Below are positions 19,306 to 64,000 of a stretch of 64,000 nt of DNA, piece after piece; the stretch's first letter is position 1; every line of letters starts with the position of its first letter. Below the pieces are notes generated by a model. The model saw only the letters and a list, made by a program, of their open reading frames with translations, was not told where the DNA came from and made no database searches. Origin of the DNA: Terriglobia bacterium. Lineage in GTDB: Bacteria > Acidobacteriota > Terriglobia > JAIQFV01. The stretch spans positions 14,544 to 78,543 of the forward strand of contig JAQUPQ010000014.1 of assembly GCA_028716525.1 (NCBI GenBank), in the 5' to 3' direction. The position numbers and the translations under genes were made by a program.

Positions 19306-19306
19306 A

Positions 19307-37272: not shown

Positions 37273-40200
37273 ATGAAATTATCTAGGTTCCCGAGGAACA
37301 TGATTTATCTCGGATTGTTTCTAGTCCTTATCTTCGGGCTATCCACCAGCACTCTCTGGGCACAAGGAGCCGGAACCGGTGAACTCTCGGGTGTGGTATT
37401 CGACCCGAGTGGAGCCGTTGTACCCGGCGCCAAATTGCAACTGACGAACAGTGCAACCGGAGCCGTGCGTACGACAGAATCAACGGTGGCTGGCACTTAT
37501 CATTTTGTTGCGTTGCCGGTTGTGGGAACTTACAGCTTGAAAGTCGAAATGGCGGGATTCAAGACCGCGGTTTTCGGAGACATCGTCATCACAGTCGGTA
37601 GTGCCTTCACAAAAGACGTACATTTGGAAGTGGGAGCCACGACCCAGGTTGTGGAGGTGACGGCCGGGTCGGAGCTTATCCAACCGACCGAGTCTTCGCT
37701 TTCCACATTAGTGGATCGGCGCATTTGGGAGAACATGCCTCTGGAAGTTCGCAACCAGAATGTGTTCATCAACCTGGCGCCGGGGGTCGTGCCGGATGAG
37801 CAGGCGGGCAGCACGCGCGGCGCGGCGGTAAACGGCGCCCGCGGCGGCACCGGTAATTACCTGGTGGAAGGCACCGATAACTATGAGCAAGGCCAGGGGG
37901 GTCGCGGCCAACTGGGTGATGGTCCCGGGGGTGCATCCACCAGCATCTCGCCGGATGCCATTGGAGAGTACCGCATCATCACGAACAGCTTTGATGCCCA
38001 ATATGGCAAGGCGGGTGGATTCGTTACCGACACGGTACTGCGATCCGGCACGAATCAGTGGCATGGTTCGCTGTTTGAGTACAATCGCATTCAAGCCTTG
38101 GCGGCCAACGACTTCTTTTCCAATGCCAACGGAATCCAAGACCGGCTGGTCCGCAATCAATTTGGCGGGTCCATCGGCGGACCCATTTGGAAGGACAAAA
38201 CCTTCTTCTTTTATTCCATGGAGTATCACCGGTTGCGTCAGGGCTCGACGATTCACGCCGTCAATACCACTCAGCAATACCTGGACTGGGTAAAAAGCGG
38301 CGGATTGAAGACCTGGGCAGAAACCAGCCCGAATGGGATTTGCATGCAGTATATCGGGAGTACCTGCCCCGGCGCCTTCGCGCAATCGGCGACGCTTGGA
38401 CCCATTTTCTCCAAACTGATGGCATCTCAGAACTTTCCTTTGGCGACCACCGGGTTCAGCAATGAAGGCCAGGGATTTTACACCGGTGGCTTGATCTACC
38501 CCGTGCCGGTGTACGGTGATGTTTTTCTTTCGGATCCCTTCCATATGAATGAGTATAGGATTTCTGCGAAGGTCGATCACCGGTTCAGTGATAAAGATCA
38601 GATCTCGGCGTTTTACCTGAACCAAGCCGCTCAATCGGGCGATCCGTATGGCGGTGGTGGAGCGACGATCGGTCCGTCCTACTTGAACGATGGCCGCGGG
38701 GTCAACCTGGGATTGACCTGGACCCACACCTTTAGTCCTGCCTTGCTTAATAATTTTAAGGTGGCCTACCTGAGGCACCGCTCCGATTTTCCGCAGGCGC
38801 CTGGAACCGCGGGTCTGCCGCAGATTGTCACCTGGTATGACCCCATCTCCGTTGGATTCGGAATGTATGCCGGGTTGCCTCAGTTTTTCACGGAGAACCA
38901 ATTCCAGTACCAGGAAAGCCTTTCGTTTATTCGCGGCAAGCACAGCTTCAAGGTGGGCGGCGAGTTTCGGCGGATCCGCAATGGCTCCAGCTTCTACAAC
39001 GACACCTTTGGGTCGTTTTATCCCTACGGCGTAGAGGATCTGGTGACCGACTTGGCGTTTACGGACAATGCCGATAAAGCCATTCTTGGAAAATTTGCCA
39101 ACGGTTCGGTGTATTACAGCAGTGCGGCCGTGAATTCTGCGACCGGCACGCTCCCGGATCCCTACCGTGGGTTCCGCGCCAATGAATTGGCGGCTTATTT
39201 CCAGGATGATTGGCGCGTCACGCCGCGGTTGACGATCAATTGGGGTATGCGTTGGGAGTACTTTGGACCTCCGCATAACTTCCGCCCCAACATTGATTCC
39301 AATTTTTATTTTGGGAATCCCGTGACACCCGTTGCCACCACCTCCCAGAATCCCTTCTTCCCGAGGAACAACCCGTTTTATGCCACAGTAGCCACGGGGA
39401 CGTTCCAGGTGCGGAACAATGAAATCTGGAACAAAGACACCAACAACTTCGGGCCGCGCTTTGGATTCGCCTTTGATGTATTCGGCGATCAGAAAGTCAT
39501 CTTGCGCGCCGGGTCGGGGATCATGTACGACCGCATTTACAACAACGTGTTCGAAAATATTCGTTTTAATCCGCCCTACTTTTCGGACAACCAGATTGGC
39601 GCTGCTGTGAACGGCATTCCGGTGGGGGCGCTGTCCGCTCCCGGCCTGTACACCGTTCCCTTCACGTCCACGGGCGCGTTCTTTAGTGGCGGCCTGGCGC
39701 CGGTTCCCAACCCACGGCATATGGACCAGAATACGGTCACACCCTATTATGAACAGTTCCACTTGGGCATTCAGTGGGAGTTCATGAAGGGCTTCATGTT
39801 GGAGACCGGTTATGTGGGCACCATGGGCCACAAGCTGGTCGGCCTGGTCGACATCAACACATTCGATGGCCGAACGGCGTCGGGATATCCGGGAACCCGG
39901 AGCACCGCACGCATCAACACCAAAGTCGGCGCAGACAATTATCGCGCCAACCTCTTCAACTCCAATTACCACAGCTGGCAGACCACGGTGCGGAAGAACT
40001 ACTCCAGTGGGTTGGGCTTCAACATGAACTACACCTGGTCCAAGGCGTTGGATCAAATGAGCGATCTCTTTAACAATCGCAGTGCGGCTCATCCCACCGA
40101 CAACATGAACATGAGGGTGGACTACGGCCCGGCAGACTTCAACATGAAACACCGGTTTGTCGGAACCGTGGGTTACGACATCCCCTTGTTCAAGAACAAC

Positions 40201-40692
40201 CGGTTTGCCGGAGGGTGGGGGATCAACACCATTGTCTCGCTGCAAAGTGGCGTTCCCTTTTCGCCTTATAGCAGCTCCAGCAGTTACGATGTGAATAAAG
40301 ACGGATATGCCACGGACCGCATCGTGTTCGCCGGCACAGGTTCGGGGATGGATTCCCGGACCGGCGGCAACCCGGCTGACCATTATTTCAGCGGGACGAA
40401 CTGGAAGCGCTACGTTTGCCCGGCTTCCGTCAATGGAGGACTTTGGTGCAATGCCCCCATTGGACGCAATTCCATGACCGGCCCCGGCTTCAAGAACATT
40501 GACTTCAATGTCACGAAGAAGTTCAAAATTACGGAGCGTGTGGCGGTGTCGGTGCAAGGGAACTTTTTCAATCTCTTCAACCACCCGAACTTCCGACTGC
40601 CCAACGGCAATCAGACTTCCGCTGATTTTGGACGATCTACGAGTGATTACGGCCCGAGGGTTACGCAACTCGCAATTCGCCTGGATTTTTAA
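37273..40692 (+). CDS. TonB-dependent-receptor-like outer-membrane protein with an N-terminal carboxypeptidase-regulatory-like (CarbopepD_reg) domain.
   Basis: It is 1139 aa long. It has a signal peptide and a CarbopepD_reg-like segment (GVVFDPSGAVVPGAKLQLTN...GTYSLKVEMAGFKT), followed by plug and barrel regions, and it ends in ...LAIRLDF. Confidence 0.7.
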   Translation: MKLSRFPRNMIYLGLFLVLIFGLSTSTLWAQGAGTGELSGVVFDPSGAVVPGAKLQLTNSATGAVRTTESTVAGTYHFVALPVVGTYSLKVEMAGFKTAVFGDIVITVGSAFTKDVHLEVGATTQVVEVTAGSELIQPTESSLSTLVDRRIWENMPLEVRNQNVFINLAPGVVPDEQAGSTRGAAVNGARGGTGNYLVEGTDNYEQGQGGRGQLGDGPGGASTSISPDAIGEYRIITNSFDAQYGKAGGFVTDTVLRSGTNQWHGSLFEYNRIQALAANDFFSNANGIQDRLVRNQFGGSIGGPIWKDKTFFFYSMEYHRLRQGSTIHAVNTTQQYLDWVKSGGLKTWAETSPNGICMQYIGSTCPGAFAQSATLGPIFSKLMASQNFPLATTGFSNEGQGFYTGGLIYPVPVYGDVFLSDPFHMNEYRISAKVDHRFSDKDQISAFYLNQAAQSGDPYGGGGATIGPSYLNDGRGVNLGLTWTHTFSPALLNNFKVAYLRHRSDFPQAPGTAGLPQIVTWYDPISVGFGMYAGLPQFFTENQFQYQESLSFIRGKHSFKVGGEFRRIRNGSSFYNDTFGSFYPYGVEDLVTDLAFTDNADKAILGKFANGSVYYSSAAVNSATGTLPDPYRGFRANELAAYFQDDWRVTPRLTINWGMRWEYFGPPHNFRPNIDSNFYFGNPVTPVATTSQNPFFPRNNPFYATVATGTFQVRNNEIWNKDTNNFGPRFGFAFDVFGDQKVILRAGSGIMYDRIYNNVFENIRFNPPYFSDNQIGAAVNGIPVGALSAPGLYTVPFTSTGAFFSGGLAPVPNPRHMDQNTVTPYYEQFHLGIQWEFMKGFMLETGYVGTMGHKLVGLVDINTFDGRTASGYPGTRSTARINTKVGADNYRANLFNSNYHSWQTTVRKNYSSGLGFNMNYTWSKALDQMSDLFNNRSAAHPTDNMNMRVDYGPADFNMKHRFVGTVGYDIPLFKNNRFAGGWGINTIVSLQSGVPFSPYSSSSSYDVNKDGYATDRIVFAGTGSGMDSRTGGNPADHYFSGTNWKRYVCPASVNGGLWCNAPIGRNSMTGPGFKNIDFNVTKKFKITERVAVSVQGNFFNLFNHPNFRLPNGNQTSADFGRSTSDYGPRVTQLAIRLDF

Positions 40693-40712
40693 GAGTTGAT
40701 CGGGTTCTTTCG

Positions 40713-40748
40713 AATCCCGCTCTGCTTCGGCAGGGCGGGATTTTTTTT
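40713..40748 (+). terminator. Rho-independent terminator: a 12-bp stem with a CTTCGG loop followed by T8.
   Basis: The sequence AATCCCGCTCTG-CTTCGG-CAGGGCGGGATT followed by TTTTTTTT is read directly, 20 nt after the receptor gene stop. Confidence 0.75.
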
Positions 40749-41648
40749 GAGGTTTGCTGCGTCGGCAAAACGCCGTCAAGCGGGTCTGGCCAGTCTGCGC
40801 TTGCGTCCGCCGGGGTTCGCTTGCGTCCCCCAGGTCTTTGGGGGATTGGCGGATTCGCTCTATTCAGCCGTTGTGCAATTCCAGTGAGCGTGTATCTTTT
40901 GGCGTTTTTTTGGATGCTGGCCAGTCTTCTGCCTGCCGCTTGACTCTTGTGGGTCCTTTTCGCGGATATTGAAAGTGAATATTCAGCCAAAACCAGGATT
41001 TCCAAAAGTAATATTTTGTCTCTGAATGGATACAAGTTTTCATATATTCGCACCCTTGGGAATAGGTCTCATTATCGTGAATGTTTTTCCCACAGAAGGA
41101 AGCATGAATAATAGAAACGCAAAAATCGCCCTAAGCAGTTGATAAAAAAATACTTAATTTGTCATAAATTTTGAGAGTTGGCGGCCACAGATAAACTCAT
41201 TCTCCATTCCATTAAAGGACACCTTTGGCATTCGAAGTGCCACTCCCTTATCGAACATTTTGGTTGCAGCGACCTGGATCGACCCTTGCCAGTTAGTGCG
41301 AATTGATTTGAACGCGATAGGTTGCAGATGGGGGCGTTTGAGGCTGTGTCGTGCGGGGGCGAAATTTTTCAGGAAGGCAGGCTGAATCTCTCATTCCGGG
41401 TTTAAGGCTGATCCCGCTCTCAGGAAATCAGGACAGATAGAACCACTCAGAAGTCGACACGCAGTGAAAAATCCAGTTCGGAATCAGAAATTCTGTCGAT
41501 TGCACGGACTTCCAAGATTCTCTTCAAATGCGGCTTCATTCCAAAACTTTTCTCGGTTTTTTGAGTGCGACTTGCGGGTCTGTCCACAGGATGCACTCAT
41601 TTCAGTTGACACGTACCAACCATTACATAAATCGATAGGAGGAAACAT

Positions 41649-44600
41649 ATGAATTATCGGAGGTACCAATCACACTGGTTGGCTTGGGGTTTCGCCCTGG
41701 CGCTCCTGATCGTGGTGTTGGCGAGCATCGGATTTGCTCAAGACATCATGACCAAGGGAAACATCAGTGGCACGGTGGTGGACGCAAGCGGTGCAGTTGT
41801 TCCCAAAGCTTCAGTGACCGCGACAGGTGACATCGACAAGCGGACTGCGACCACCGACGAATACGGACGATTCGATTTTACGAGTCTGTTGCCGGGCAGC
41901 TACACGGTGAAAGCCGAAATGACCGGCTTCAAAACCGTATCCGCCTTGAATGTAACCGTCTTTGTCGGAAAAACTTCCACCTTAAAACTCACGCTTGAAG
42001 TCGGCAACGTTTCCCAAGTGGTCGAGGTTCAAGCGGGGGCCGAGACGGTGGATCTTTCCAGCACGGCAGTGTCCTCGAACTTGAACGACCAATTGTATGA
42101 GAACCTGCCGTTGCAGCGGACCGTCAGCAGCTTGTTTTATCTGGCTCCCGGTGTGACCGACGGTTTGGGCGGCGGCCGGGCCAACCCCTCAGTGTCGGGT
42201 GCCTCGGCGCTCGATAACCTCTACGTGGCCGACGGTGTGAATATCACCGACTCCGCTTTTGGCGGATTCGGAGTGTTCTCACGTTCCTACGGCTCCTTGG
42301 GTGTTGGAATCACGACGTCCTACGTCCAGGAAGTTCAAGTCAAGACCGGCGGGTTTGAGCCGCAATATGGACAATCCGAAGGCGGCATTGTCAACATCAT
42401 CACCAAGTCCGGAACCGATCAGTATCATGGAGAGGTATTCGGATTCTTCCAACCGAAATCATTCGAAGCCACTCGCTTCCAGCGTGATGATTTCGCTGTG
42501 AACAAGGTTGGGGAATTCCTCCATCCGGAAAACTATGACATGGGTGTGGATGCAGGTGGACCGGTGCCGGGAACAGGCAAGCGCGTATTCTTCTTTGGAT
42601 CATTCAATCCTTCCCTTCAGCGGAGTATTGTCCAGGGAGCGGCAGGATCGGGAATTTTGACCCTCCTCGGGCAGACTGCCCAAGTCGCCTATTCCAAGAA
42701 TTACGCGGCAAAAATCGATGCCAATATTGCCACCGGACATCAGGTGAACTTCTCGATATTCGGCGATCCCACTTCAACCAACCTGGCGCCGTGGAGGTCA
42801 TTGAATATTGACAACCTGACAGCCGACAGCGTTCTGAATTACGGCACCCGCAATATGGCATGGCGCTATACCGGGACTCTCTCATCGACTTGGACGGTCA
42901 GCAGCTCTTTTAGCTGGGGACATAACACATTCGATGAGAGTGGATTCGCCAACTTCAACCAGATTGTCGACCGCACGCAAGCAGCGCGGGGTAACTTCAC
43001 GGCCATCGGTTTGGGATTTATTGAACCGACCCAAGGGGATACCTATCGACTGACGGGCGACACCCAGAAGATATTTAATTTCCTGGGGACGCATACCATT
43101 GCGCTGGGCTACAACTATCAGCGTGCCTACTACTCCGGACTTCGTGATCGTAGCGGGCCGCATTACACGGTGCCGGCCGGCAATGCTGATGGAAGCTACA
43201 AGATTCCGTCCTTCGCGGCGGGACAACCCCTGAATGCCTCATGGTCGCTTCGTCTGGCCAGTTCATCTTGCACCCTGTGCCCGTTGCTGAACGTGCCAGG
43301 TGTGGGTGTGACTCCTGTCTACCTGCGGCAAGACCGTGGGGAATTTGGAACCCCTGTGTTTAACACCCGGTCGAATTACCACACCATGTATTGGCAAGAT
43401 ACGTGGCGGGTAAATCGATTTGTGTCAGTTCTGGCCGGCTATCGGTGGGAACAGGAGGAACTGGTTGGGTCTCCGTTCACTTCGGGTGGATTCAACCACT
43501 ATACATTTACAGACAACTGGTCTCCTCGCTTTGGAGTGACCATCGATCCGTTGGGCCACGGGAAGACGAAAATATTTTACAACTTCGGTCGATTCACCGA
43601 ATATTTCCCGTTGGATGCGGCGGAACGATCTCTTTCCACAGAGCTTGATTTCATCGGGGGACGTTTTGCTCCGGCCTATACGGTTATCGGAGGGCAACGC
43701 GTCGCTACTCTGAACCAGTTTGGAACAGTAACTCCGGTCGTCGATGCTGCGCATTTGTTGAATTTCGCGGCGGGTGGCACTGGATCCGGCATTGGAATTT
43801 CTGCACAGTCGGTTTCCAATCCAATCAATCCCGGCACCAAGTTGGGATTCGCACAGGAGCATATGATTGGATTTGAGCAACAGTTGCCGCACGGCTTTGT
43901 TCTGTCGGCGCGTTACATTGACCGGCGGTTGAAGCGCATCATCGAAGACGCCTCCCTTGATCCCATTGAAGACTATGTGTACCTGGGAGCTTTTGGCCAG
44001 ACCTACTTTATCGGAAACGTCAACTCCAAGCTCGACGTGGGAACCAACCCCATCGAGTTTACTTTCCCGGTGGGCGGTACGGTGCCCAAACAGTGCACCG
44101 ATCCTTCCTTGGTGGGCCAGGCCTTTGACCGGAACAATAATTCACTCGGCATGTTCTGTTTTGCTCCGCTGGGTGTGAATGGAAAGCCGGCGGGTTCTCA
44201 GATCCCGGATGGTGTCCCGGATGGATATGTAGATCCGGTGCATCTCTACAAAGCGGTTGAAATTGAAATGAACAAGCGGTTCTCAAACAACTGGCAGTTG
44301 TTGGCGAATTGGAGAATTGCTACCCTCCGTGGCAACTACGAGGGGCACCTCCGCAACGACAACGGCCAAACCGACCCGGGCATCAGCTCCTTGTTCGATT
44401 TCACACCGGGCGATTTCGGCCTGCTGGGTGATCAATTCGCCGTAGGCCCGCTCAACACGGACCGCCGCCATGTCGTGAATATCTATGCCAATTATGGCCT
44501 GACGGACAACGTGTTGTCGGATCGATGGAAGTTCTTCAACGGGCTGAACCTCGGTGTCGGGTTCCACATCGAGTCCGGTTTGCCGATGAGCAACTTGGCT

Positions 44601-44894
44601 GCGCATCCGGGTTACCTGAATGCCGGCGAAGTTCCCTTGGGCGGCCGTGGCTCGTTAGGTCGAACTCCCACCGATTTCCGACTGGATTTGCATGCGGATT
44701 ATCCGTTTAAGATTTCCGAACGTCTCAAGGCGACCATCATTGGAGACGTTTTCAATGTCACCAACTCGCAGACTTTGAGACTGATCAACCAGTTCAGTGA
44801 AAGCACCTTCCAGCAACCCAATCCGGATTTCAAGCAACCGACATCTTGGTACAATCCGATTTCGTTCCGCTTAGGTGTAAAACTGAGCTTCTAA
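41649..44894 (+). CDS. TonB-dependent-receptor-like outer-membrane protein with an N-terminal CarbopepD_reg domain, a paralog of 37273..40692.
   Basis: It is 1081 aa long. It has a signal peptide and the segment GTVVDASGAVVPKASVTATG...GSYTVKAEMTGFKT, and it ends in ...FRLGVKLSF. Confidence 0.7.
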   Translation: MNYRRYQSHWLAWGFALALLIVVLASIGFAQDIMTKGNISGTVVDASGAVVPKASVTATGDIDKRTATTDEYGRFDFTSLLPGSYTVKAEMTGFKTVSALNVTVFVGKTSTLKLTLEVGNVSQVVEVQAGAETVDLSSTAVSSNLNDQLYENLPLQRTVSSLFYLAPGVTDGLGGGRANPSVSGASALDNLYVADGVNITDSAFGGFGVFSRSYGSLGVGITTSYVQEVQVKTGGFEPQYGQSEGGIVNIITKSGTDQYHGEVFGFFQPKSFEATRFQRDDFAVNKVGEFLHPENYDMGVDAGGPVPGTGKRVFFFGSFNPSLQRSIVQGAAGSGILTLLGQTAQVAYSKNYAAKIDANIATGHQVNFSIFGDPTSTNLAPWRSLNIDNLTADSVLNYGTRNMAWRYTGTLSSTWTVSSSFSWGHNTFDESGFANFNQIVDRTQAARGNFTAIGLGFIEPTQGDTYRLTGDTQKIFNFLGTHTIALGYNYQRAYYSGLRDRSGPHYTVPAGNADGSYKIPSFAAGQPLNASWSLRLASSSCTLCPLLNVPGVGVTPVYLRQDRGEFGTPVFNTRSNYHTMYWQDTWRVNRFVSVLAGYRWEQEELVGSPFTSGGFNHYTFTDNWSPRFGVTIDPLGHGKTKIFYNFGRFTEYFPLDAAERSLSTELDFIGGRFAPAYTVIGGQRVATLNQFGTVTPVVDAAHLLNFAAGGTGSGIGISAQSVSNPINPGTKLGFAQEHMIGFEQQLPHGFVLSARYIDRRLKRIIEDASLDPIEDYVYLGAFGQTYFIGNVNSKLDVGTNPIEFTFPVGGTVPKQCTDPSLVGQAFDRNNNSLGMFCFAPLGVNGKPAGSQIPDGVPDGYVDPVHLYKAVEIEMNKRFSNNWQLLANWRIATLRGNYEGHLRNDNGQTDPGISSLFDFTPGDFGLLGDQFAVGPLNTDRRHVVNIYANYGLTDNVLSDRWKFFNGLNLGVGFHIESGLPMSNLAAHPGYLNAGEVPLGGRGSLGRTPTDFRLDLHADYPFKISERLKATIIGDVFNVTNSQTLRLINQFSESTFQQPNPDFKQPTSWYNPISFRLGVKLSF

Positions 44895-54388: not shown

Positions 54389-54558
54389 TCAAACAAGGGT
54401 AGTGACTCATTTTGAATGGGGTGGCGCACACATGCGCTCCAGGCATGTGTGCGGAGTCCCCCTTGTTGATGTACGCACGCATCGTCCGCCACGGCGGCCG
54501 ATGTATGCGCCACCCAGAGGTGAAAAAGAATTCAAAATGAGTCACTACCCAAACAAGC
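54389..54558. mobile_element. Miniature inverted-repeat element (about 150 bp) with 19-20 bp terminal inverted repeats, flanked by an 8-bp direct repeat CAAACAAG (a putative target-site duplication).
   Basis: The left end is CAAACAAG|GGTAGTGACTCATTTTGAA and the right end is TTCAAAATGAGTCACTACC|CAAACAAG. The interior carries nested palindromes (GCGCACACATGCGC...GCATGTGTGCG) and has no coding capacity. Confidence 0.55.
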
Positions 54559-54981
54559 AATCGATTTTCAGGTACACTCTTTTAATCTGTCATGTCGTTA
54601 CACGGGTGAGGTCATTGACCGGTTATTTTTACTGTGCTAGCATGCGGGTGTTCTTCTATCTTACACACAACGAGATGGTTGGCGAAGGGAATGCCGGTTT
54701 CAGGGTGATCATCCCCTAGCGTCGTGGCAGCAGCACGAACAGCAATTCGATAGTGCCACGGGGATGATTTTTCAAGTGGCTTTGAAGATTATTACCGCCA
54801 AGCATCTCTGCAGGCGCAACGCAGGGCGCGATATTGCCTCGAGGCGCCAATTCTGGTGCTTCACGTTTACTACAACGTCCCCGCGGTCTACAACCTGGAA
54901 TCAATAAGAAAATTCACCACAGAAGAACGGGCGTCGGAGCCGGCTGCGGATCTGCCGTGAGCGAAGGTGAGGAATCATGCT

Positions 54982-55110
54982 TAACATCGGCACGAAGCTG
55001 GGACCGTACGTGATTGAGCTGTTTTGGCGGCGTCCGAGCCGCCAGGCGAAATTCCCCGTGAGGAGATCAGGTGGTGGCTCGGCGAAGGTGAGGAATTATG
55101 CTTAACATCG
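54982..55110 (+). other. Decoy upstream ORF of 42 codons. It is created by a 58-bp duplication of the kinase ribosome-binding site, ATG and first 16 codons. Its TAA stop overlaps the authentic kinase start (ATGCTTAA).
   Basis: Copy 1 (54962-55019) and copy 2 (55082-55139) differ at 4 of 58 positions. The upstream ORF encodes [42 protein letters not shown]. Confidence 0.4.
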
Positions 55111-57827
55111 GCACAAAACTCGGACCGTACGTGATTGAGTCATCTCTGGGCGCCGGCGGGATGGGGGAAGTCTATCGCGCCCGCGATACGCGACTGGATC
55201 GTACCGTCGCCATAAAGGTTCTGCCCGACCACCTGGCGGCGACCCCGGAATTGCGCCAGCGCTTTGAGCGCGAAGCCCGGTCCATCTCGGCACTCAATCA
55301 TGCCCACATCTGCGTTCTACACGATGTGGGCTCTCAAGACGGCATGGATTTCCTGGTCATGGAGTACCTCGAAGGAGAAACACTGGCCACACGACTGGCT
55401 AAGGGAGCCTTGCCCCTCGAACAGGCGTTAAAGATTGGCATCGATATTGCCGACGCACTGGACAAAGCCCATCGCGCCGGCATCACCCATCGCGATTTGA
55501 AGCCGGGTAACATCATGCTCACCAAGAGCGGAGCAAAACTTTTGGATTTTGGCTTGGCCAAATCTGCCGTCATGAGGACAGGGACATCGGGGACAGCACC
55601 GCTGCTGAGCGCTGCCCTGACGATGACTTCGCCGAGCCCGCAGGTCTCTCCTTTGACTACGGCCGGAACGATTGTGGGCACTATTCAGTACATGTCGCCG
55701 GAGCAAATCGAAGGCAAAGAGGCGGATGGCCGCAGCGATATTTTTGCCTTGGGAGTTGTGCTTTACGAGATGGCCACCGGCAAGCGCGCCTTTGAGGGAA
55801 AGTCACAGATCTCGGTGGCCTCTGCCATTTTAGAAAAAGATCCGGAGCCGATCAGCAGTTCTCAGCCTTCGGCGCCGCCGGCTTTGGATCGCGTCGTACA
55901 AACCTGTTTGGCCAAAGATCCCGATGAGCGCTTTCAAACAGCCCACGATCTGAAATTGCAATTGAGTTGGATTACGGAAGGAGGTCCGGCTTCCGGTGCT
56001 GCACAACCGGTGAGGCTCGACTGGCCGGTGCGGCGTAAGGCTCTTTGGGCTGGAGGCGCCTTGGTGGTTGTTCTATTGGCTGCATTCGGCGGGACCTTTC
56101 TCGTGCCCAAACCGAATGCCCCCACGGTCCGGGCGATCATTGAGCCGCCCGAAAATCTGACCATCGACTCCACGGGTGATTACAGCGGCCCGCCGGTTCT
56201 TTCGCCTCAGGGCGACAAAATCGTCTTCTGTGCCCACGGACGTAACAGTCCCAAGGAGTTGTGGGTGAGGTCTATGAACAGCTTCTCCAGCCAGCGACTG
56301 GAGGGTACGGAGGGCGCCTACGACCCGTTTTGGTCACCCGACGGAAGTTCCATCGGGTTCTTCAACAACGGCAAACTCGATCGCATTCCGGTGAACGGCG
56401 GCCCCGTAACGGTGGTGACCGACGCGCCCAACGCCCGAGGCGGGACCTGGGGCCCCGGCGATGTTATTTTGATGGCACCGGACATCCAAGGGCCCATCTT
56501 CCGAGTGGGTGCGGATGGCGGCAAACCGACCGCCGTGACGCAATTGGATGTCAGCAAGCATACGACACATCGATGGCCGACTCTCTTGCCGGACGGCAAG
56601 CATTTCCTTTATCTGGCCACAAATCATAATGGAGGCAAGCTGGAAGAGAACGGCATCTATTTTGCTTCGCTGGATGGAAAAGAAAACCGCTTGCTTGTGG
56701 CTACCGATGGAGACGGGGAATATGCTTCCGGCTACCTGCTGTTTCATTCCGGAACAGAGTTGATGGCCCAGCCATTCGACCCCGGCTCCGGCAAACTCTC
56801 CGGCGAACCCTCGCCATTGGTCGGAAGGATTCGCCAGGATTCCGGCGTGTGGCGTACGTTATTTACAGTTTCGCAGAACGGCCTGCTTATTTACGAACCC
56901 GGCGCCGCTGAAACAGCGGGATCACAATTGGTCTGGTTTGACCGCAACGGTAAGCAGTTGGGTCAAGTCGGGGAACGGGGATCGTACATGGATCCTCGTC
57001 TTTCACCCGACGGCAAGCGTTTGGCCGTGAGCTTCGGCGATCCGCAACGCGAGATATGGATTTTCGGCCTGGATCGCGGAACAAAAACTCGTCTGACGTT
57101 CAGTCAAGCGGCGAGCGGGACCAAGGTGGAGCCGGCCTGGTCGCCCGACGGCAGGACCGTTGCTTATTCAACCTCTCTCTCATCGCCCGGGGGCAACAAT
57201 ACGGCGATTGTCAGCAAGGCTGCCAGCGGCAACGGTGGTGAAGAAATTCTGGAAGAACGGCGGGGGAACTCCTTGAGCGGATATCGCTACCCGTCCTGGT
57301 CGCCGAATGGACAATACTTCGTCTACGTGGTCTCGAACGGACCCAGCGGAGCCGCGATTTACGCGAAGCCGACCAGCGGGAACGGCCAACCCATTGAGGT
57401 CGTGCGGCCCACTGCGCCCCAAGCCAACATTGGTTTTTATCGCATCTCACCGAACAACCGCTGGGTCGCCTACACCTCCGATGAATCGGGACGCACCGAA
57501 GTGTATATCGCACCCTTCCCGCATGGTGACGGCAAGTGGCAGGTCTCGACGACAGGCGCGGACTTTGCGGCTTGGCGCGGGGATGGTAAGGAAATCTACT
57601 TCAATACCAATGCGGACGAATATACAGCATGCTCCATCACGGAGCAAGGAAGCGATCTCGAAATCGGGACACCCCAGGTGCTTTTCGCAGCCAACACCTC
57701 GGCTTTGGGCGTCGGATATGACGTGACGTCCGACGGCAAGCGCTTTCTCGTCAATCTTGCCGGCGATGAGACTTCTCCACCGCTGCATCTGGTCGTGAAT
57801 TGGCCCGGCGATTTGAAAAGGAAGTAG
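55098..57827 (+). CDS. Ser/Thr protein kinase with a C-terminal TolB-like (PD40/WD40-like) beta-propeller sensor domain.
   Basis: It has Hanks kinase motifs ([34 protein letters not shown]) and a transmembrane segment, followed by repeated SPDG/WSPDG PD40 motifs. Confidence 0.85.
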
Positions 57828-57935
57828 GTCTCATTGGAGGAGAAGGGCACAGCCGCAGAAAATTGAAATCTTTTTTGTATTTCGGGATCCATTTGATGCC
57901 GTTTGATTCTGAAGAATCCATTTAAGGAGATTTTT

Positions 57936-59891
57936 ATGATCCGGAGACGATATCCCCTTTCTTTGTTTTTAGTGGTCCTGTTCCTCCTGGCGACCGCGAC
58001 ATCATTGATTCTGGCTTCACCCACCATCCAGCTCACGGTAGACACGACTCAAGCCCCGGAACGAATTATCCGCACCCACGAGATCATTCCCGTGAAGTCC
58101 GGCCCGCTGACGTTGTTTTACCCCAAGTGGATTCCCGGTGAGCATGAGCCTTCCGGCCCGATCGCCAATGTGGCCGGGTTGAAATTCACTGCCCATGGAA
58201 AGAACATTCCCTGGAATCGGGATTTGCTGGATGTCTTTACCTTCCACGTGGAGGTTCCGGAGGGAGTCAGTACTCTCGACATCGAGTTTCAATATCTTGA
58301 GCCCGGCGGTCGGGGCGGGCAATACACGTCCGGAACGTCGGCAACCCACAACCTGGTGGATTTGAGTTGGAATCAGAATCTGCTCTATCTCGCCGGGGTA
58401 CCCGCGCAAGATCAAATGTTTCATGCCACGTTGGTGCTGCCGGCCGGATGGAAATTTGGAACCGCCCTGCCCGTCGAAAATCAAACCGGGAGCCGCATCA
58501 CATTCCAATCGGTGGAGCTGAATCGCCTGGTGGATTCACCGGTCATCGCCGGGAAGTTTTATCGCGCCATTGACATAACGCCTCCAGGCGAATCGATTCA
58601 CCACGAGATTGATCTGGTAGCCGACAGCGCCGAGGCCCTCGAGATGACTCCGCAGGTCGAAGATGGGTTGAAAAACCTGGTGGCGGAAACAGGCAAGCTG
58701 TTCGGTGCCCGGCATTATCGCGATTATCACTTTCTCCTGACCCTAAGCGACTTCGTGGCTCATTTTGGTCTGGAGCATCACGAATCAAATGACAGCCGCG
58801 TGGGCGAACGCACATTGATCGGCCCGAATGCCTCGCGCCAGGTGGGACCGCTGCTGGCGCATGAGTTCACACATTCTTGGAATGGCAAGTTTCGACGCCC
58901 CGCAGACTTGAGCACGCCGTATTACGAAGTTCCCGAGAAGACCGACATGCTCTGGGTGTACGAAGGATTCACGGATTTCTTTGGAAATGTCCTGGCCGCG
59001 CGGAGCGGGCTGTGGACCGAAGAAGATTATCATCGATACATCGCTGGAGTGGCGGCGTCACTAGGACCGGGCCGTCCCGGACGCACTTGGCGAGCCTTGC
59101 AGGACACCGATGTGGCTGTTCCCGGAATGTTTGGTCAGGGCGGATGGATGAATTGGCGCCGCGGGACCGACTACTATCCGGAAGGTGATCTGATCTGGCT
59201 GCAGGCGGCCACCATCATCGATCGTGTAACTCACGGCCAGAAGTCCATTGACGATTTTTGCAAGCTGTTTTACGGCGGGCCGAATGAGGGGCCGCAATTG
59301 AAGCCCTATACCTTTGAACAGTTGGTGGAAACTTTGAACCAGGTCGCGCCGTACGACTGGGCCAAGCTCCTTCACGAACGTCTCGACTCGACCGCCCCGG
59401 AAGCACCCATCGAAGGTTTGGAAGCCAGCGGATGGAAAGTGATCTACAACGATAAGCCCACCGAGGAACCCCGGCCGCGTATTACCGGCGGTGTAATCGA
59501 ACCCTATTCCATTGGCCTGACCGTTTCGCCGGCAGGTGACGTGATCGATTCCACTTGGGACGGACCGGCTTTCAATGGGGGTGTGACTCCCGGCATGAAA
59601 ATCCTGGGAGTAAACGGACGTCTTTATAACCCGGATCGTCTGAAACTCGCCATCAAGGAAAGCGCCAAGAGCGCCAAGCCCATTGAACTGCTGGTGGGGG
59701 ACAACAGTGACTACAAGATCTGCACCGTGAATTACCACGGCGGGGAGCGCTATCCTCATCTTGAACGCATCGAAGGCACTCCGGAATATCTTGACTCCAA
59801 TGTGCTGAAAGCCCGGGTCCCCCATATCGAGGCGAAACCATCTCCCGGGGACAAAGAAAAACGTTCACGCGTGACAGGGACAGAGAAATGA
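57936..59891 (+). CDS. Secreted M61-family glycyl aminopeptidase with a C-terminal PDZ domain.
   Basis: An AAGGAGA ribosome-binding site precedes the ATG at 57936. It has a signal peptide, the HEFTHSWNGKFRRP zinc motif and a PDZ-like segment (GLTVSPAGDVID...VTPGMKILGVNGRLY). The track ORF starts at 57903. Confidence 0.7.
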   Translation: MIRRRYPLSLFLVVLFLLATATSLILASPTIQLTVDTTQAPERIIRTHEIIPVKSGPLTLFYPKWIPGEHEPSGPIANVAGLKFTAHGKNIPWNRDLLDVFTFHVEVPEGVSTLDIEFQYLEPGGRGGQYTSGTSATHNLVDLSWNQNLLYLAGVPAQDQMFHATLVLPAGWKFGTALPVENQTGSRITFQSVELNRLVDSPVIAGKFYRAIDITPPGESIHHEIDLVADSAEALEMTPQVEDGLKNLVAETGKLFGARHYRDYHFLLTLSDFVAHFGLEHHESNDSRVGERTLIGPNASRQVGPLLAHEFTHSWNGKFRRPADLSTPYYEVPEKTDMLWVYEGFTDFFGNVLAARSGLWTEEDYHRYIAGVAASLGPGRPGRTWRALQDTDVAVPGMFGQGGWMNWRRGTDYYPEGDLIWLQAATIIDRVTHGQKSIDDFCKLFYGGPNEGPQLKPYTFEQLVETLNQVAPYDWAKLLHERLDSTAPEAPIEGLEASGWKVIYNDKPTEEPRPRITGGVIEPYSIGLTVSPAGDVIDSTWDGPAFNGGVTPGMKILGVNGRLYNPDRLKLAIKESAKSAKPIELLVGDNSDYKICTVNYHGGERYPHLERIEGTPEYLDSNVLKARVPHIEAKPSPGDKEKRSRVTGTEK

Positions 59892-59956
59892 GCCGGTAGC
59901 ACCGCCCATTTTGGAGGCTGGCGCCACACCCGAACCGCAGGCGCAGGAGAAAAATT

Positions 59957-62650
59957 GTGCTGAACATTGGAACCCGATTCGGACCCTATGAGATTGAATC
60001 TGCATTGGGCGCGGGCGGCATGGGGGAGGTCTATCGTGCGCGCGACACACGGTTGGACCGTACCGTAGCGATCAAGGTCCTGCCGTCACATCTGTCGCTT
60101 AATGCCGAATTGAAACAGCGGTTCGAGCGTGAAGCCAAGGTTATTTCCCAACTCAACCACCCCAACATCTGCACTCTGTATGACGTTGGGCACGATTCGG
60201 CCAGCGACACCGATTATCTGGTGATGGAATTCCTCGATGGCGAGACGCTTGCCGAGCGTCTCCGCACAGGCTTGATTCCGCCCGATCAGGTGGTGAAGAT
60301 CGGCTGCGAAATTGCCGACGCGCTGGAGAAAGCGCATCGCGCAGGAATTGTTCATCGCGACCTCAAGCCCGGCAATGTGATCCTAACCAAGACCGGCGCC
60401 AAGTTGCTTGATTTCGGTTTGGCCAAACCGGCATCGATGAGCGCCGTTTCAACGAGTGGTTCAGCGCCTCTGCTCTCGGCCGCCATGACGGTGACGTCGC
60501 CCAATCCGCAGGCGTCGCCCCTCACGTCGGCCGGCGTGCTCGTGGGGACCATCCAATACATGTCCCCGGAGCAGTTGCAGGGAATCGAAGCGGACGCACG
60601 CAGCGACATTTTCAGCTTCGGCTCCGTGCTTTACGAAATGACAACAGGGAAGAGGGCGTTTGAAGGCAAGAGCGCAATCTCGGTGGCCAGTTCAATCCTG
60701 GAGAGAGAGCCGGAGCCCATCACCGCACGGGCGCCCCTGACCCCGCCGGCGCTGGCGCACGTGATTAATACCTGTCTAGCCAAGGACCCGGAGGAACGCT
60801 TTCAAACGGCGCACGATGTCAAGGTGCAACTGAAGTGGATCGCGGAGGTAGGATCGGCGGCGGTGGGATTGCCGACGGTGAAGTCGGTACAGCGGCGACG
60901 CCGGGAATGGCTGGCCTGGGGAATGGCAGCTCTGCTGGCAATCGTGGGTGTCGCCGTTGGCTGGTGGTTGCATGCTCCCATCCCTCCGGAAGTGCTGCGG
61001 TCGAACTTGGAGCTGCCGGCCAACGAGCAGGTGGCGGGGGTTGACAGCTCATTGGCATTTTCTCCGGACGGCCGTAAGCTGGCGCTGACCCTCACGGGAT
61101 CGGACGGCAACTCCAAAATCTGGATCCGCTCGTTGGATAGTCTGACGACCAACGCGCTGACCGGCACGGAAGGCGGAACTTACCCCACCTGGTCACCCGA
61201 TGGGCGTTTCCTTGCGTTCTTCGCCGATCACAAATTGAAAAAGATTGACGTGGCTGGAAGCACGGTCCAGACCCTCTGCGATGCAGACGACGGGAGGGGT
61301 ATCGCGTGGGGCCGGAACGGGACCCTTGTGTTTGCGCCGGGACCGTTCACCGGACTGTTCACAGTTTCATCTGCCGGAGGAAGTCCGAGTGAGCTCACCC
61401 ATCCTGCGGCCAGCGGAGAAACGCATCGCCTGCCGCAACTCTTGCCGGACGACGAACATGTCTTGTTCTTCAGTGGATCGCTCAGCGGAAAAGCCAACGC
61501 CATTTTGGTCTTATCGCTGAAGACTCGACAGACCACTGAAGTTCTCAAGCCGGCGGAGAGCGGGCCGCGCTATGTTGCGCCTGGGTATCTGGTGTTTTTG
61601 AAAGAGCAGAATCTTATGGCTCAACCTTTCGACGTCAAGCGGTTAAAGCTGACAGGCGAGGCCGTCCCCATCGCCGAACAGGTTCAGTATACAAACTTCC
61701 GCTGGACCGGAGGTTACACCATTTCCGATACCGGTCTGTTGGCATACAGAAGGCAGGGAACCGCAGGAGTGTATCAGCTGACTTGGATGGACATGGACGG
61801 CAAAGAGTTGGGCAAGGTAGGAGAACCCATTTCCGTTGCCGGAATAACTCTTTCGCCCGACGCCAAACATGCCATCTTGATGCGACCGGAAACCGGCGGG
61901 CATGGCTCTATAAAACTGTGGATATATGATTTGCAGAATGGCGTAATGAGTCGGTTCACGTTCAGTAACGGAGACGATCAAAGCCCCGTGTGGTCGCCGG
62001 ACGGAAAGCAGGTGGTCTATTCCGCGAATCGCGGGCAAGGATTCGGCATTTATGTTAAGGCGGCCAGTGGCAGTTCTTCAGAGCAATTGCTGTATCGAGC
62101 CGACGACCTGATCCTTCCGACGAGCTGGTCACCGGACGGCAAGCTATTGGCGTTCGACAGCGTGGGAGGTCAAAACAAAAATGGTGCGCTCTGGATCCTT
62201 CCCATGACGGGAGAGCAAAAGCCTTACCGCTTGCATCCGACGACAGAGAATAACGAGCGGACCGGTTTCTTTTCCCACGACGGTAAATGGTTTTGCTACG
62301 AGTCGGATGAATCGGGGCGAAACGAGGTTTATGTTGTCCCTTTCCCGGGGCCGGGAGGCAAGTGGCAGATCACTCAGGGTGGCGGCACAGGGAGATGGCT
62401 GGGGAGCGACCAAATCTTGTGGGTGACAGCGGAGCAGCGGGCGATGGCAACTAGTGTGAAGGCCAAAGGCGCAGACTTGGAGATTGGTTCGGCGCGGCCT
62501 TTGTTCGGGGGCAAGCCATTACCCCAAACGGCGGGCGCCGATTTCACACAGGATGGCAAGCGCATTTTGACTGGGTTGCAGGTGGTAGAACATGCCGCTA
62601 ACCCATCGCTGATTTTGGTGGACCACTGGACTGCGGAATTAAGAAAGTAG
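59957..62650 (+). CDS. Ser/Thr protein kinase with a C-terminal TolB-like beta-propeller, a paralog of 55098..57827. It uses a GTG start.
   Basis: It starts [43 protein letters not shown]... and has [11 protein letters not shown]. The C-terminal region carries PD40 repeats (WSPDGRFLAF, WSPDGKQVVYS, WSPDGKLLAF). Confidence 0.85.
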   Translation: MLNIGTRFGPYEIESALGAGGMGEVYRARDTRLDRTVAIKVLPSHLSLNAELKQRFEREAKVISQLNHPNICTLYDVGHDSASDTDYLVMEFLDGETLAERLRTGLIPPDQVVKIGCEIADALEKAHRAGIVHRDLKPGNVILTKTGAKLLDFGLAKPASMSAVSTSGSAPLLSAAMTVTSPNPQASPLTSAGVLVGTIQYMSPEQLQGIEADARSDIFSFGSVLYEMTTGKRAFEGKSAISVASSILEREPEPITARAPLTPPALAHVINTCLAKDPEERFQTAHDVKVQLKWIAEVGSAAVGLPTVKSVQRRRREWLAWGMAALLAIVGVAVGWWLHAPIPPEVLRSNLELPANEQVAGVDSSLAFSPDGRKLALTLTGSDGNSKIWIRSLDSLTTNALTGTEGGTYPTWSPDGRFLAFFADHKLKKIDVAGSTVQTLCDADDGRGIAWGRNGTLVFAPGPFTGLFTVSSAGGSPSELTHPAASGETHRLPQLLPDDEHVLFFSGSLSGKANAILVLSLKTRQTTEVLKPAESGPRYVAPGYLVFLKEQNLMAQPFDVKRLKLTGEAVPIAEQVQYTNFRWTGGYTISDTGLLAYRRQGTAGVYQLTWMDMDGKELGKVGEPISVAGITLSPDAKHAILMRPETGGHGSIKLWIYDLQNGVMSRFTFSNGDDQSPVWSPDGKQVVYSANRGQGFGIYVKAASGSSSEQLLYRADDLILPTSWSPDGKLLAFDSVGGQNKNGALWILPMTGEQKPYRLHPTTENNERTGFFSHDGKWFCYESDESGRNEVYVVPFPGPGGKWQITQGGGTGRWLGSDQILWVTAEQRAMATSVKAKGADLEIGSARPLFGGKPLPQTAGADFTQDGKRILTGLQVVEHAANPSLILVDHWTAELRK

Positions 62651-62721
62651 ATTCGCTGGCGTTCGCCTTGAGGGATTGGGGCAGGGCCATTCTGAAGCCG
62701 GCGACCGATCGACGATAGACA

Positions 62722-64000
62722 ATGGTTAACATCGGGACAAACCTTGGTTCTTACGAAATCCTCGGACCGATTGGGTCAGGCGGGATGGGCGAAGTGTATC
62801 GTGCGCGCGACTCGAAGCTCAATCGCGACGTGGCGCTGAAATTTCTTCCCGAAACTTTTGTCGCTGACGCCGAACGATTGGGACGTTTTGAACGCGAAGC
62901 GCGAGTTCTGGCCTCACTGAACCATGCCAACATCGCCTCAATTTATGGAGTTGAAGACTCCACTCGCAATAAGGCACTGGTGATGGAGCTCGTGGAAGGG
63001 CCAACGCTCGCAGATCGCATCGCCAAAGGACCGATTCCTATCGACGAAGTGCTGCCAATCGCCAAACAGATTTGCGAAGGTTTGGAATATGCGCATGAGC
63101 GCGGGGTGGTGCATCGCGATTTGAAACCCGCCAATATCAAAATCAGCATCGACGGCGTAGTGAAAATTCTGGACTTTGGATTGGCCAAGGCCTTGGAAGA
63201 AAACGTTGCTTCCAGTGATCCCTCCACTTCGCCGACGCTGAGTCACTTGGCGACGCAGGCTGGAATCATTTTGGGAACCGCCGCGTATATGGCGCCGGAG
63301 CAAGCGAAAGGAAGGCCGGTCGATCGACGGTCCGACATTTGGGCTTTCGGTTGTGTGTTGTACGAAATGCTCACAGGCAAGCCGATGTTCACCGGCGAGA
63401 CCGTTACCGATGTTCTTGCGGCTGTCGTTCGCGCCGAGCCGGAATGGCCGCTGCTTCCCCCAAACACACCGGATGGGATTCATCGTCTTTTGAGGCGTTG
63501 CTTGCAGAAAGAGGCGAAGCAGCGATTACAGGCTATCGGTGACGCCCGTTTAGTCCTCGAAGAAGCTGCTTCTGGTGCGCCTGAGGACCGTTTCCAGGTC
63601 GTCCCTGGCCCTACCGGTGCGTCCTCTGCACGGTCGTGGGTGGTTGCCGGCGCCTTACTTCTCGCTTTTGCGGGGATGGCAGGAGGTGCGCTCTTGTGGT
63701 GGCGTTCACCGCAACCCCTTAATCTGGAAGTCAGTATCCTGCCTCCCGAGAAAACCCGCTTTACTTTGATGAGCGACGATGCGTCAGGTCCGGTCGCGCT
63801 TTCGCCAGACGGAAAACAAATCGCGTTCGTTGCCTCAGACGACAAGAGCAACGGCCGGATCTACATACGCTCTCTTGATCACAAAGAGGCCAACCCCGTG
63901 CCGGGAACGGAAGGAGCGACCTATCCGTTCTGGTCAGCGGATGGGAAATCACTCGGCTTTTTCAGCGGAGGCAAACTGCGGCGTGTCGCTGTGAGTGGTG
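62722..64000 (+). CDS. Ser/Thr protein kinase, third paralog. It is partial and continues past the window end.
   Basis: It starts [43 protein letters not shown] and has HRDLKPANIKI and DFGLAK. The reading frame is open to position 64000. It is not in the track because it has no stop in the window. Confidence 0.8.
   Translation, partial: MVNIGTNLGSYEILGPIGSGGMGEVYRARDSKLNRDVALKFLPETFVADAERLGRFEREARVLASLNHANIASIYGVEDSTRNKALVMELVEGPTLADRIAKGPIPIDEVLPIAKQICEGLEYAHERGVVHRDLKPANIKISIDGVVKILDFGLAKALEENVASSDPSTSPTLSHLATQAGIILGTAAYMAPEQAKGRPVDRRSDIWAFGCVLYEMLTGKPMFTGETVTDVLAAVVRAEPEWPLLPPNTPDGIHRLLRRCLQKEAKQRLQAIGDARLVLEEAASGAPEDRFQVVPGPTGASSARSWVVAGALLLAFAGMAGGALLWWRSPQPLNLEVSILPPEKTRFTLMSDDASGPVALSPDGKQIAFVASDDKSNGRIYIRSLDHKEANPVPGTEGATYPFWSADGKSLGFFSGGKLRRVAVSG

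Follow-up and report, generated by a model that had tools for sequence, protein, structure and literature searches.

Gene organisation at the locus

Three genes for receptor Ser/Thr kinases (K1, K2 and K3), with a gene for an M61 zinc metallopeptidase placed between the first two, occupy the 3′ end of the window, that is, the whole 64,000-nucleotide stretch of Terriglobia bacterium DNA analysed here (Table 1). The four co-oriented open reading frames described in the original prediction are confirmed, with gaps of 108 bp between K1 and the peptidase gene, 65 bp between the peptidase gene and K2, and 71 bp between K2 and K3. An AAGGAG Shine-Dalgarno sequence lies 7 nt ahead of ATG 57936, the peptidase start chosen by the gene caller; a start at TTG 57903 would shorten the first gap to 75 bp. 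The window end truncates K3, and its complete gene (889 aa) was found at 8202-10871 of the Logan contig L001, which matches the window with 0 mismatches over 9480 nt and on which the array terminates after K3. Further paralogs of the three kinases are absent from the rest of the window. All four proteins are already present in public databases, as 'protein kinase' and 'M61 family peptidase'.

Table 1 Features of the kinase-peptidase array and their positions in the window
Feature	Residues (aa)	Position (nt)	Strand	Remarks
Copy of K1 ribosome-binding site and first 14 codons		54961..55018	+	58 nt; repeat family D3
K1, receptor Ser/Thr kinase		55098..57827	+	909 aa
K1 kinase domain	11-283	55128-55946	+	
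K1 transmembrane helix	318-336	56049-56105	+	
K1 periplasmic tandem PD40 beta-propeller	346-909	56133-57824	+	
M61 zinc metallopeptidase		57936..59891	+	651 aa; putatively secreted
M61 signal peptide	about 1-27			
M61_N domain	about 32-207			
M61 catalytic domain	about 306-420			HEFTH at aa 309-313, nt 58860-58874
M61 PDZ-like domain	about 515-600	about 59478-59735		
K2, receptor Ser/Thr kinase		59957..62650	+	897 aa; GTG start
K2 kinase domain	11-285	59987-60811	+	
K2 transmembrane helix	320-338	60914-60970	+	
K2 periplasmic tandem propeller	346-897	60992-62647	+	
K3, receptor Ser/Thr kinase		62722..64000	+	cut by window end
K3 kinase domain	11-271	62752-63534	+	
K3 transmembrane helix	307-325	63640-63696	+	
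K3 propeller region, start		about 63727	+	

No intrinsic terminator, sigma-70 promoter or stable RNA structure stood out above shuffled controls in the intergenic gaps. The shared orientation, the short gaps and the lack of terminator-like or promoter-like sites within them suggest that K1, the peptidase gene, K2 and K3 may be co-transcribed, which would imply some coupling of the peptidase and the kinases. A phosphatase or FHA-domain partner gene does not adjoin the array; the sole PP2C/SpoIIE-type gene lies 43 kb away.

Kinase domains and membrane topology

K1, K2 and K3 are, by their sequences, Hanks-type Ser/Thr kinases with intact catalytic motifs. Their matches to the Pfam Pkinase model (PF00069) reach 154.9, 161.2 and 188.7 bits, respectively, against a cut-off of 31.7, and the Gly-rich loop, VAIK lysine, HRDxKxxN, DFG and APE/SPE are all five present in each (in K1, [21 protein letters not shown] + SPE). 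The activation segments are unusually long, at 43-54 aa across the kinases (53 aa in K1, 54 aa in K2). A single hydrophobic helix follows each kinase domain and is preceded by RRK in K1, RRRR in K2 and a single Arg in K3; the positive-inside rule thereby supports an orientation with the kinase domain in the cytoplasm and the propeller outside it. The arrangement of kinase, transmembrane segment and PD40 repeats that had been read into all three genes is borne out by these matches and by the one helix in each. The common N-terminus that had likewise been ascribed to all three holds for K1 and K2, which are 88.6% identical over 44 aligned codons, but not for K3 ([43 protein letters not shown]), which reaches only 64% there and whose kinase domain, 45% identical to those of K1 and K2, falls in a separate subfamily.

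The kinase domains also attract models of anti-phage defence kinases of the PD-T4-6 or MADS Mad6 type, with PADLOC scores of up to 314 bits for PD-T4-6 and up to 268 bits for mad6, and about 150 bits for antiphage_MADS6 of NCBIfam. However, the last of these falls far below its cut-off of 460, and all of the matches are confined to the generic kinase domain, at about aa 5-300, which led us to reject this identity. The PD-T4-6 models of PADLOC are also triggered by a housekeeping enzyme, the PASTA kinase of Streptococcus thermophilus, in all genomes of that species examined (PMC11514479). A periplasmic propeller would moreover be an unusual means of detecting phage infection, and the neighbourhood shows no defence genes, in that PADLOC found nothing in the other flanking proteins tested; a role in defence is therefore highly improbable.

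The propeller ectodomain

The periplasmic region of each kinase spans about 560 aa and contains Pfam PD40 repeats in K1 (81 bits), K2 (96 bits) and K3. An AlphaFold model of the K1 ectodomain (pLDDT 85.9) is all-beta, with about 46 strands, and its best Foldseek matches are double propellers, namely LRP6 E1E2, Pwp2 and tricorn protease. As modelled, the ectodomain is a tandem double beta-propeller of PD40 repeats. Tandem propellers of PD40 type are shared with the beta6/beta7 propellers of tricorn protease and with those of S9/DPP-IV peptidases, in keeping with Pfam matches of the ectodomains to Tricorn_N and Tricorn_2nd and with Foldseek matches to 1k32 and to an S9 carboxypeptidase. Unlike in tricorn and the S9 enzymes, the propellers at this locus are followed by no peptidase domain and are joined to a kinase through a transmembrane helix.

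The original prediction had called these propellers TolB-like, and a related explanation is that the kinases sense envelope integrity, with propellers that would bind not external ligands but components of the cell's own envelope, for instance Pal-like lipoproteins or fragments of peptidoglycan. The PD40/WD40-like repeats of a periplasmic beta-propeller are indeed common to both, and partial matches to the TolB model TIGR02800 were obtained; PASTA kinases provide a precedent for the sensing of wall fragments (PMC6213207), and the conservation of the sensors among orthologs fits stable ligands. Nevertheless, the TIGR02800 matches, at 24-106 bits, stay far below the cut-off of 343, and TolB, a product of the tol-pal operon, is soluble and combines an alpha/beta domain at its N-terminus with a single six-bladed propeller, whereas the kinases are anchored in the membrane, carry a double propeller whose all-beta model has no room for such an alpha/beta domain, and lie outside any tol-pal context, there being no tol-pal genes among the ORFs annotated in the window. 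Membership of the TolB family is rejected on these grounds. The many divergent paralogs per genome also fit a single self ligand poorly, and we consider envelope-integrity sensing an unlikely role for the kinases. What the model describes is a double propeller, not a copy of TolB, as the ectodomain of an abundant and wholly uncharacterised family of Acidobacteriota kinases.

The M61 peptidase

The product of the gene between K1 and K2 is predicted to be a zinc aminopeptidase that is secreted and carries a PDZ-like domain towards its C-terminus. It matches Pfam Peptidase_M61_N (101.2 bits) and Peptidase_M61 (100 bits) well above the cut-offs of 23 and 22, residues H309, E310, H313 and E343 are invariant across 22 orthologs, and its hydrophobic, signal-peptide-like N-terminal segment comes after an RRR motif. 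An end-to-end alignment was obtained between the M61 family profile and PDB 8j9c, a 'putative glycyl aminopeptidase' (E=7.5e-188), on which our literature search returned nothing specific. The M61 assignment stands as originally made, whereas the PDZ domain that had been assigned along with it is seen only through family profile and structure alignments: profile positions 504-594 match solved PDZ domains (E=1.6e-4 to 2.6e-4) and the tail of the peptidase can be aligned to the C-terminal portion of 8j9c as well, but the Pfam PDZ models gave no match to the single M61 sequence even at E<=10. Orthologs are labelled 'metalloprotease with PDZ domain' by JGI, and the combination of M61 and PDZ has already been catalogued (PMC6411480). 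In its full-length profile alignment, its HExxH and its putative C-terminal PDZ-like domain, the protein is like other members of the M61 family (PDB 8j9c/8j9d; 4fgm, IL1258), and it shows no notable difference from the M61 glycyl aminopeptidases, being an ordinary ortholog. Such orthologs, 56-77% identical, were found in 80 Acidobacteriota species.

Synteny of the peptidase and the kinases

The position of the peptidase gene within the array had given rise to the proposal that the M61-PDZ protein acts with the kinases on either side of it as a single sensing module outside the cytoplasm, in which the peptidase would generate, trim or present peptides or envelope fragments and the propellers would bind them, so that proteolysis is relayed into cytoplasmic phosphorylation. 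The shared strand, the short gaps and the lack of a terminator consensus between the genes are consistent with such a module. PD40 propellers act as peptide gates in tricorn and in the peptidases of family S9, to which the ectodomains show weak similarity (Pfam, Foldseek), and PDZ domains bind peptide C-termini; both properties would suit it. Moreover, the M61 gene adjoins kinase-propeller genes not only in the window but also in three of its five closest relatives (contigs L003, L004 and L005), with 2 to about 6 such genes flanking it in L003 and L004; this adjacency among the closest relatives exceeds the background of about 3 kinase-propeller genes per roughly 1.4 Mb of flanking sequence.

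Across the Acidobacteriota as a whole the association is not kept. Only 4 of the 80 species with the M61 gene have a kinase-propeller gene within about 1.1 kb of it, and 6 within the flanking sequence present, of up to 10 kb, leaving 74 with none there; three of these linked species are among the five closest M61 relatives, and the clustered occurrences may be a single evolutionary event. The closest relative of all (L002, 77% identity) has no kinase-propeller gene in the 3.2 kb upstream or the 4.7 kb downstream of M61. Where kinases do lie beside M61 elsewhere, their sensors are only 28-43% identical to those of K1, K2 and K3 and are not orthologous to them. Approached from the other side, none of the six contigs with orthologs of K1 (three) or K2 (three) carries M61 within the available flank of up to 10 kb, while arrays of 2-5 such kinase genes are found on four of them. 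The peptidase has no conserved neighbour, no flanking family occurring in more than 7 of the 80 species, and no shared neighbourhood was found between the other genes of the window and the M61 loci. A conserved M61-kinase module is rejected on this two-way synteny, and a joint sensing function at the present locus is very unlikely. The proposal was made on the understanding that a lack of synteny in other genomes would speak against it, and on this comparative evidence the peptidase-kinase sensing module can be set aside. The place of M61 inside the array most likely reflects a gene order particular to one small subclade of Terriglobia and does not argue for a conserved functional module.

Divergence of the paralogs

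K1, K2 and K3 are, on their sequence divergence, ancient paralogs and not recent duplicates. Synonymous sites are saturated between them, with pS at 0.71-0.77 over all domains and pairs (0.71-0.73 with the first 45 codons included), and DNA identity in the kinase part is 59-76%. As saturation extends even to the first 45 shared codons, the shared N-terminus would reflect a protein-level constraint on the ATP-binding lobe. The sensors have diverged much more than the kinase domains: identity between K1 and K2 is 72% for the kinase domain and 36% for the sensor, with dN of 0.22 and 0.71 (ectodomain), respectively. Between orthologs the sensors are conserved, at 68-72% identity for K1 on other contigs and 65-78% for K2 (L085, L086 and L087), similar to the 71-77% of their kinase domains. 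These statements rest on identities and pS tables, the ASCII trees showing no support values.

Proposed model of the array

We propose, with a probability of roughly three in four, that the locus encodes three independent receptor Ser/Thr kinases together with a peptidase that most likely has no connection with them. All three kinases are single-pass membrane proteins, whose topology places the N-terminal Hanks-type kinase domain in the cytoplasm and the tandem propeller of about 560 aa in the periplasm. By analogy with PknD and PknB of Mycobacterium tuberculosis, ligand binding, or a ligand-driven association of the propellers, would bring two kinase domains together; the paired kinases would autophosphorylate their long, Ser/Thr/Pro-rich activation segments and could then phosphorylate cytoplasmic targets, a model of receptor-kinase activation that we take from a published review (PMC6213207). 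The sensor of each paralog is conserved in its own right, which makes a separate ligand for each of them probable, read out through a similar kinase module. The M61 peptidase most likely trims peptides on its own.

PknD is a close precedent for this layout among the characterised proteins that we compared: its Hanks-type kinase is likewise N-terminal and cytoplasmic and is linked by one transmembrane helix to a beta-propeller sensor outside the cytoplasm, and dimerisation is the presumed route of activation (PMC6213207). The propeller of PknD is a single six-bladed NHL propeller, whereas the ectodomains at this locus are modelled as two PD40 propellers, and the activation segments of the kinases are unusually long. 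Assignment of the kinases to PknD itself was rejected, the equivalog model NF009651 scoring 154-160 bits against a cut-off of 839 and the repeats being PD40, not NHL.

Acidobacteria rank with the most abundant bacteria of soils and have expanded sets of Ser/Thr kinases. The cluster described here is an ordinary one, and its kinases belong to a very large family, common in soil Acidobacteria, that numbers tens of thousands of members and often occurs as tandem arrays: 17,616 clusters at 50% identity were recovered at E<=1e-30, mostly of about 890-905 aa and with the same layout. Our literature search on fusions of kinases and PD40 propellers in Acidobacteria returned nothing specific, and the Solibacter genome paper reports only expanded Ser/Thr kinase paralogs that are less than 50% identical and give no indication of positive selection. 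The family is a reasonable target for ligand discovery, for which the present locus gives no special handle.

Recombination in the kinase arrays

The original prediction had taken the array to be recombinationally active. Recent duplication or gene conversion inside the window array is rejected, given a pS of 0.71-0.73 in every domain of its paralogs and the low DNA identity of their kinase parts, whereas sister arrays do recombine, with recent gene-conversion tracts in the kinase-coding halves of L085, L086 and L003. Sensors that differ sharply between paralogs and are conserved between orthologs, beside kinase halves that are homogenised in sister arrays, are consistent with a tentative proposal, which we hold as possible though somewhat doubtful: the arrays of this family would be modular sensor repertoires, in which gene conversion homogenises the kinase 5′ halves of neighbouring genes and the propeller 3′ halves stay distinct, with conservation between orthologs only. 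The window array would then be an old one that is no longer converting. If true, one interchangeable kinase chassis would serve many sensors, and the arrays would be bacterial counterparts to the clustered receptor-kinase families of plants. Less likely than this is that one subclade recruited the M61-PDZ peptidase as a partner to process ligands.

The same proposal would make a recombination scar of the short duplicate upstream of K1. This duplicated start region, which had been described from the sequence, is real: the 58-nt copy is 93% identical to the K1 original, lies 121 nt upstream of it and has no equivalent upstream of the three K1 orthologs examined. A 42-codon ORF (54977-55105) opens in the copy and ends in a stop codon that overlaps the start of K1.

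Organisation of the array

At the end of the window, three anciently diverged paralogs of a receptor Ser/Thr kinase (K1, K2 and K3), each with a PD40-propeller ectodomain as its sensor, form an unremarkable tandem array, and a stand-alone M61 peptidase with a likely PDZ domain lies among them. Positions 55098-64000 are occupied by four co-oriented open reading frames on the + strand, with gaps of 108 bp (K1-M61), 65 bp (M61-K2) and 71 bp (K2-K3), and the other 55 kb of the window contain no further paralog. A Logan contig (L001; run SRR22315506) reproduces window positions 54521-64000 with zero mismatches and completes K3; as the gene after K3 on this contig is on the opposite strand, the array has three members. 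That gene, just past the window end (L001:11042-13270, - strand), encodes a protein of at least 742 aa, whose sole Pfam match is a sub-threshold Lcl C-terminal domain and which has no PADLOC match. The gene caller starts the peptidase at an ATG that follows an AAGGAG ribosome-binding site by 7 nt, and the mechanical open reading frame starts at a TTG at 57903. Two more tandem paralog pairs occur in the window, one of MacB-like permeases (MacB_PCD and FtsX; 822 and 796 aa) and the other encoding large outer-membrane barrels that carry a CarboxypepD_reg domain (1139 and 1081 aa).

Positions of the array genes and of other features in the window
Feature	Position	Strand	Remarks
K1	55098-57827	+	909 aa
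K1 activation segment	55545-55703		DFG to SPE
M61 peptidase	57936-59891	+	651 aa, counted from the gene caller's ATG
K2	59957-62650	+	897 aa, GTG start
K2 activation segment	60410-60571		DFG to SPE
K3	from 62722, past window end	+	889 aa in full (Logan contig)
58-nt copy of the K1 start	54961-55018
42-codon ORF	54977-55105		opened by the 58-nt copy
Zinc-finger/phosphatase ORF	11429-12424	-
Further tandem paralog pairs	16837-21819; 37273-44894

Linkage between the peptidase and the kinases

Synteny was examined both ways, outward from the peptidase and outward from K1 and K2 orthologs. A scan of one genome per species gave at least 577 relatives of the peptidase, and the best 80 of these (56-77% identity) were taken with up to 10 kb of flank, some contigs being shorter. 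Among these best 80, four loci have a kinase-propeller gene no more than about 1.1 kb from the peptidase gene (L003, L004, L005 and, oriented divergently, L059), and two have one at 5-6 kb (L030 and L040). Three of the kinase-adjacent loci are among the five closest relatives (67-77% identity), and the closest relative among the matches listed (L002) has no kinase-propeller gene in 3.2 kb of upstream and 4.7 kb of downstream flank. The sensors of the kinases flanking the peptidase in L003, L004 and L005 are only 28-43% identical to those of K1, K2 and K3, and these kinases are therefore different paralogs. The kinase beside the peptidase at L003:6752-9714 is split over two reading frames, perhaps because it is a pseudogene or because of a frameshift error in long reads. 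From the other side, K1 orthologs are found in a five-gene kinase array (L082), in a two-gene array (L083) and as a solitary gene (L084), and K2 orthologs in four-gene arrays (L085 and L086) and as a solitary gene (L087).

The original prediction, that the peptidase and the kinases form one sensing system, found little backing in the gene order of other genomes: within the available flank of up to 10 kb, the partner was absent from 74 of the 80 peptidase loci and from all six contigs with K1 or K2 orthologs. Nor was a conserved neighbour of any kind found across the 80 loci, where the commonest flanking family reaches 7/80, and none of the window's other genes was found to travel with the peptidase. 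Taken together, the two-way synteny and the lack of a conserved neighbour indicate that the linkage is a gene-order trait of one small subclade, possibly the product of a single evolutionary event. The points that still speak for a coupling of the peptidase and the kinases are their shared orientation, the short gaps and the lack of a terminator or promoter consensus in these gaps. The family recurring most often near the peptidase elsewhere is that of the MacB-like genes.

The peptidase begins with a signal-peptide-like stretch, contains the M61_N and M61 catalytic domains and has HEFTH at aa 309-313. Across 22 orthologs, H309, E310, H313 and E343 do not vary. Over its whole length, the ortholog profile aligns with PDB 8j9c/8j9d, a 'putative glycyl aminopeptidase' (E=7.5e-188). 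The PDZ domain first proposed has support at the profile level, where positions 504-594 match solved PDZ domains (E=1.6e-4), but not by the single sequence, which gave no match to Pfam PDZ models; a C-terminal PDZ domain is thus likely. The combination of M61 and PDZ is an architecture already catalogued (PMC6411480). The protein is most likely a secreted aminopeptidase acting alone.

Architecture and signalling of the kinases

All three kinases pass the Pfam Pkinase model by a wide margin, contain PD40 repeats and carry the Gly-rich loop, the VAIK/VALK lysine, HRDLKPxN, DFG and S/APE. A single hydrophobic helix lies at about aa 307-338 in each, preceded by RRK in K1, RRRR in K2 and one Arg in K3; from these basic residues the kinase is predicted to be cytoplasmic and the C-terminal region of about 560 aa extracytoplasmic. 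The Ser/Thr/Pro-rich activation segments (53 aa in K1, 54 aa in K2 and 43 aa in K3) are unusually long, the usual length being about 20-35 aa. The ectodomain is not the TolB propeller first proposed: with the NCBIfam TolB model it reaches 24-106 bits, where the cut-off is 343. The K1 ectodomain was modelled with AlphaFold2 from 31 sequences; the model is all-beta (mean pLDDT 85.9), with about 46 strands, sufficient for 11-12 blades. Searched against the PDB with Foldseek, the model best resembles tandem double propellers (LRP6 E1E2, Pwp2, tricorn protease 1k32 and S9 peptidases); TM-scores are just 0.3-0.37, as expected where the inter-domain angle differs between two-domain proteins. Precomputed Pfam matches to Tricorn_N and Tricorn_2nd are consistent with a double propeller.

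The kinases belong to a very large, uncharacterised Acidobacteriota family. Among 1.84 billion representatives, the K1 ectodomain retrieved 17,616 clusters (50% identity) at E<=1e-30, rising to 46,681 at E<=1e-10; most top matches have the architecture of K1 (about 890-905 aa, propellers at about 340-900), and the source names of K1 and K2 sensor matches are nearly all Acidobacteriota classes. A literature search found no published characterisation of a family member; in the Solibacter usitatus genome, expanded Ser/Thr kinase paralogs share <50% identity and show no sign of positive selection (PMC3174227). The sequences themselves show the architecture, intact catalytic residues and one transmembrane helix per kinase, and comparison shows each sensor to be conserved among its orthologs. 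By analogy with PknD and PknB (PMC6213207), ligand-dependent association of the ectodomains would draw the kinase domains together, and autophosphorylation of the activation segment would be followed by phosphorylation of cytoplasmic targets. No PP2C or FHA-domain gene was found beside the array. The single candidate Ser/Thr phosphatase in the window lies 43 kb away from the kinases; its ORF joins a DksA/TraR C4 zinc finger to a SpoIIE/PP2C-type phosphatase domain. An anti-phage role was rejected: the PADLOC PD-T4-6 and mad6 models score high, but over the kinase domain only, and the NCBIfam MADS6 score is far under its cut-off. In every Streptococcus thermophilus genome examined, the housekeeping PASTA kinase is picked up by PD-T4-6 models too (PMC11514479).

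Divergence and recombination

Between the paralogs, the sensors have diverged more than the kinase domains. K1 and K2 are 72% identical in the kinase and 36% in the ectodomain, with nonsynonymous divergence of 0.22 and 0.71, respectively; K3 shares 43-45% (kinase) and 31-38% (ectodomain) with either. Synonymous sites are saturated throughout the pairs (pS 0.67-0.85), and these are not simple recent duplicates. Between orthologs, ectodomain identity (68-72% for K1, 65-78% for K2) is similar to that of the kinase domains (71-77%). These comparisons argue that the sensors are not fast-evolving as such, and that their specificities split early and then came under purifying selection.

The claim that the array is recombinationally active applies to the family, but not to the window array. 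In the first 45 codons, DNA identity is 67-78% and pS for the pair K1/K2 is 0.73, so the shared N-terminus reflects protein-level conservation of the ATP-binding lobe and not recent recombination. Locally there is just one trace: 121 nt upstream lies a 58-nt copy, 93% identical, of the K1 ribosome-binding site and first 14 codons, which was absent upstream of three K1 orthologs. The ORF that it opens ends in a TAA overlapping with the ATG of K1 in ATGCTTAA, and this layout could couple translation. An 11-bp stem between the copies folds no better than shuffled sequence.

In sister arrays (L085:15434-20790, L086:10001-20821 and L003:4233-17703), neighbouring kinase halves share 80-90% DNA identity, with stretches at 100%, and propeller halves about 50%. 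Genes 3 and 4 of L085 share 89% identity in the kinase (nt 90%, pS 0.16, 30-codon windows at 100% nt) and 31% in the ectodomain, and the change comes where the kinase domain ends (about residues 280-307). The same pattern is seen in L086 genes 1 and 4 and in L003 genes b, dn1 and dn2. The sensor of L083 gene 2 corresponds to that of L082 gene 2 (80% identity), whereas its kinase is 84% identical to L082 gene 4 and 61% to L082 gene 2, which makes it a chimera of the gene 2 sensor and the gene 4 kinase. In these arrays the two halves have different histories, and the patterns indicate gene conversion or module exchange restricted to the kinase-coding half. Of all this, only the mosaic evolution at family level might merit further study. 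In L085 genes 3 and 4, homogenisation has spared a single stretch of the kinase domain, the activation segment (66% nt against 89-100% in the flanks). The L086 array also includes a 630-aa propeller-only gene (L086:16237-18129) with no called kinase domain, immediately preceded by a kinase-like stretch.
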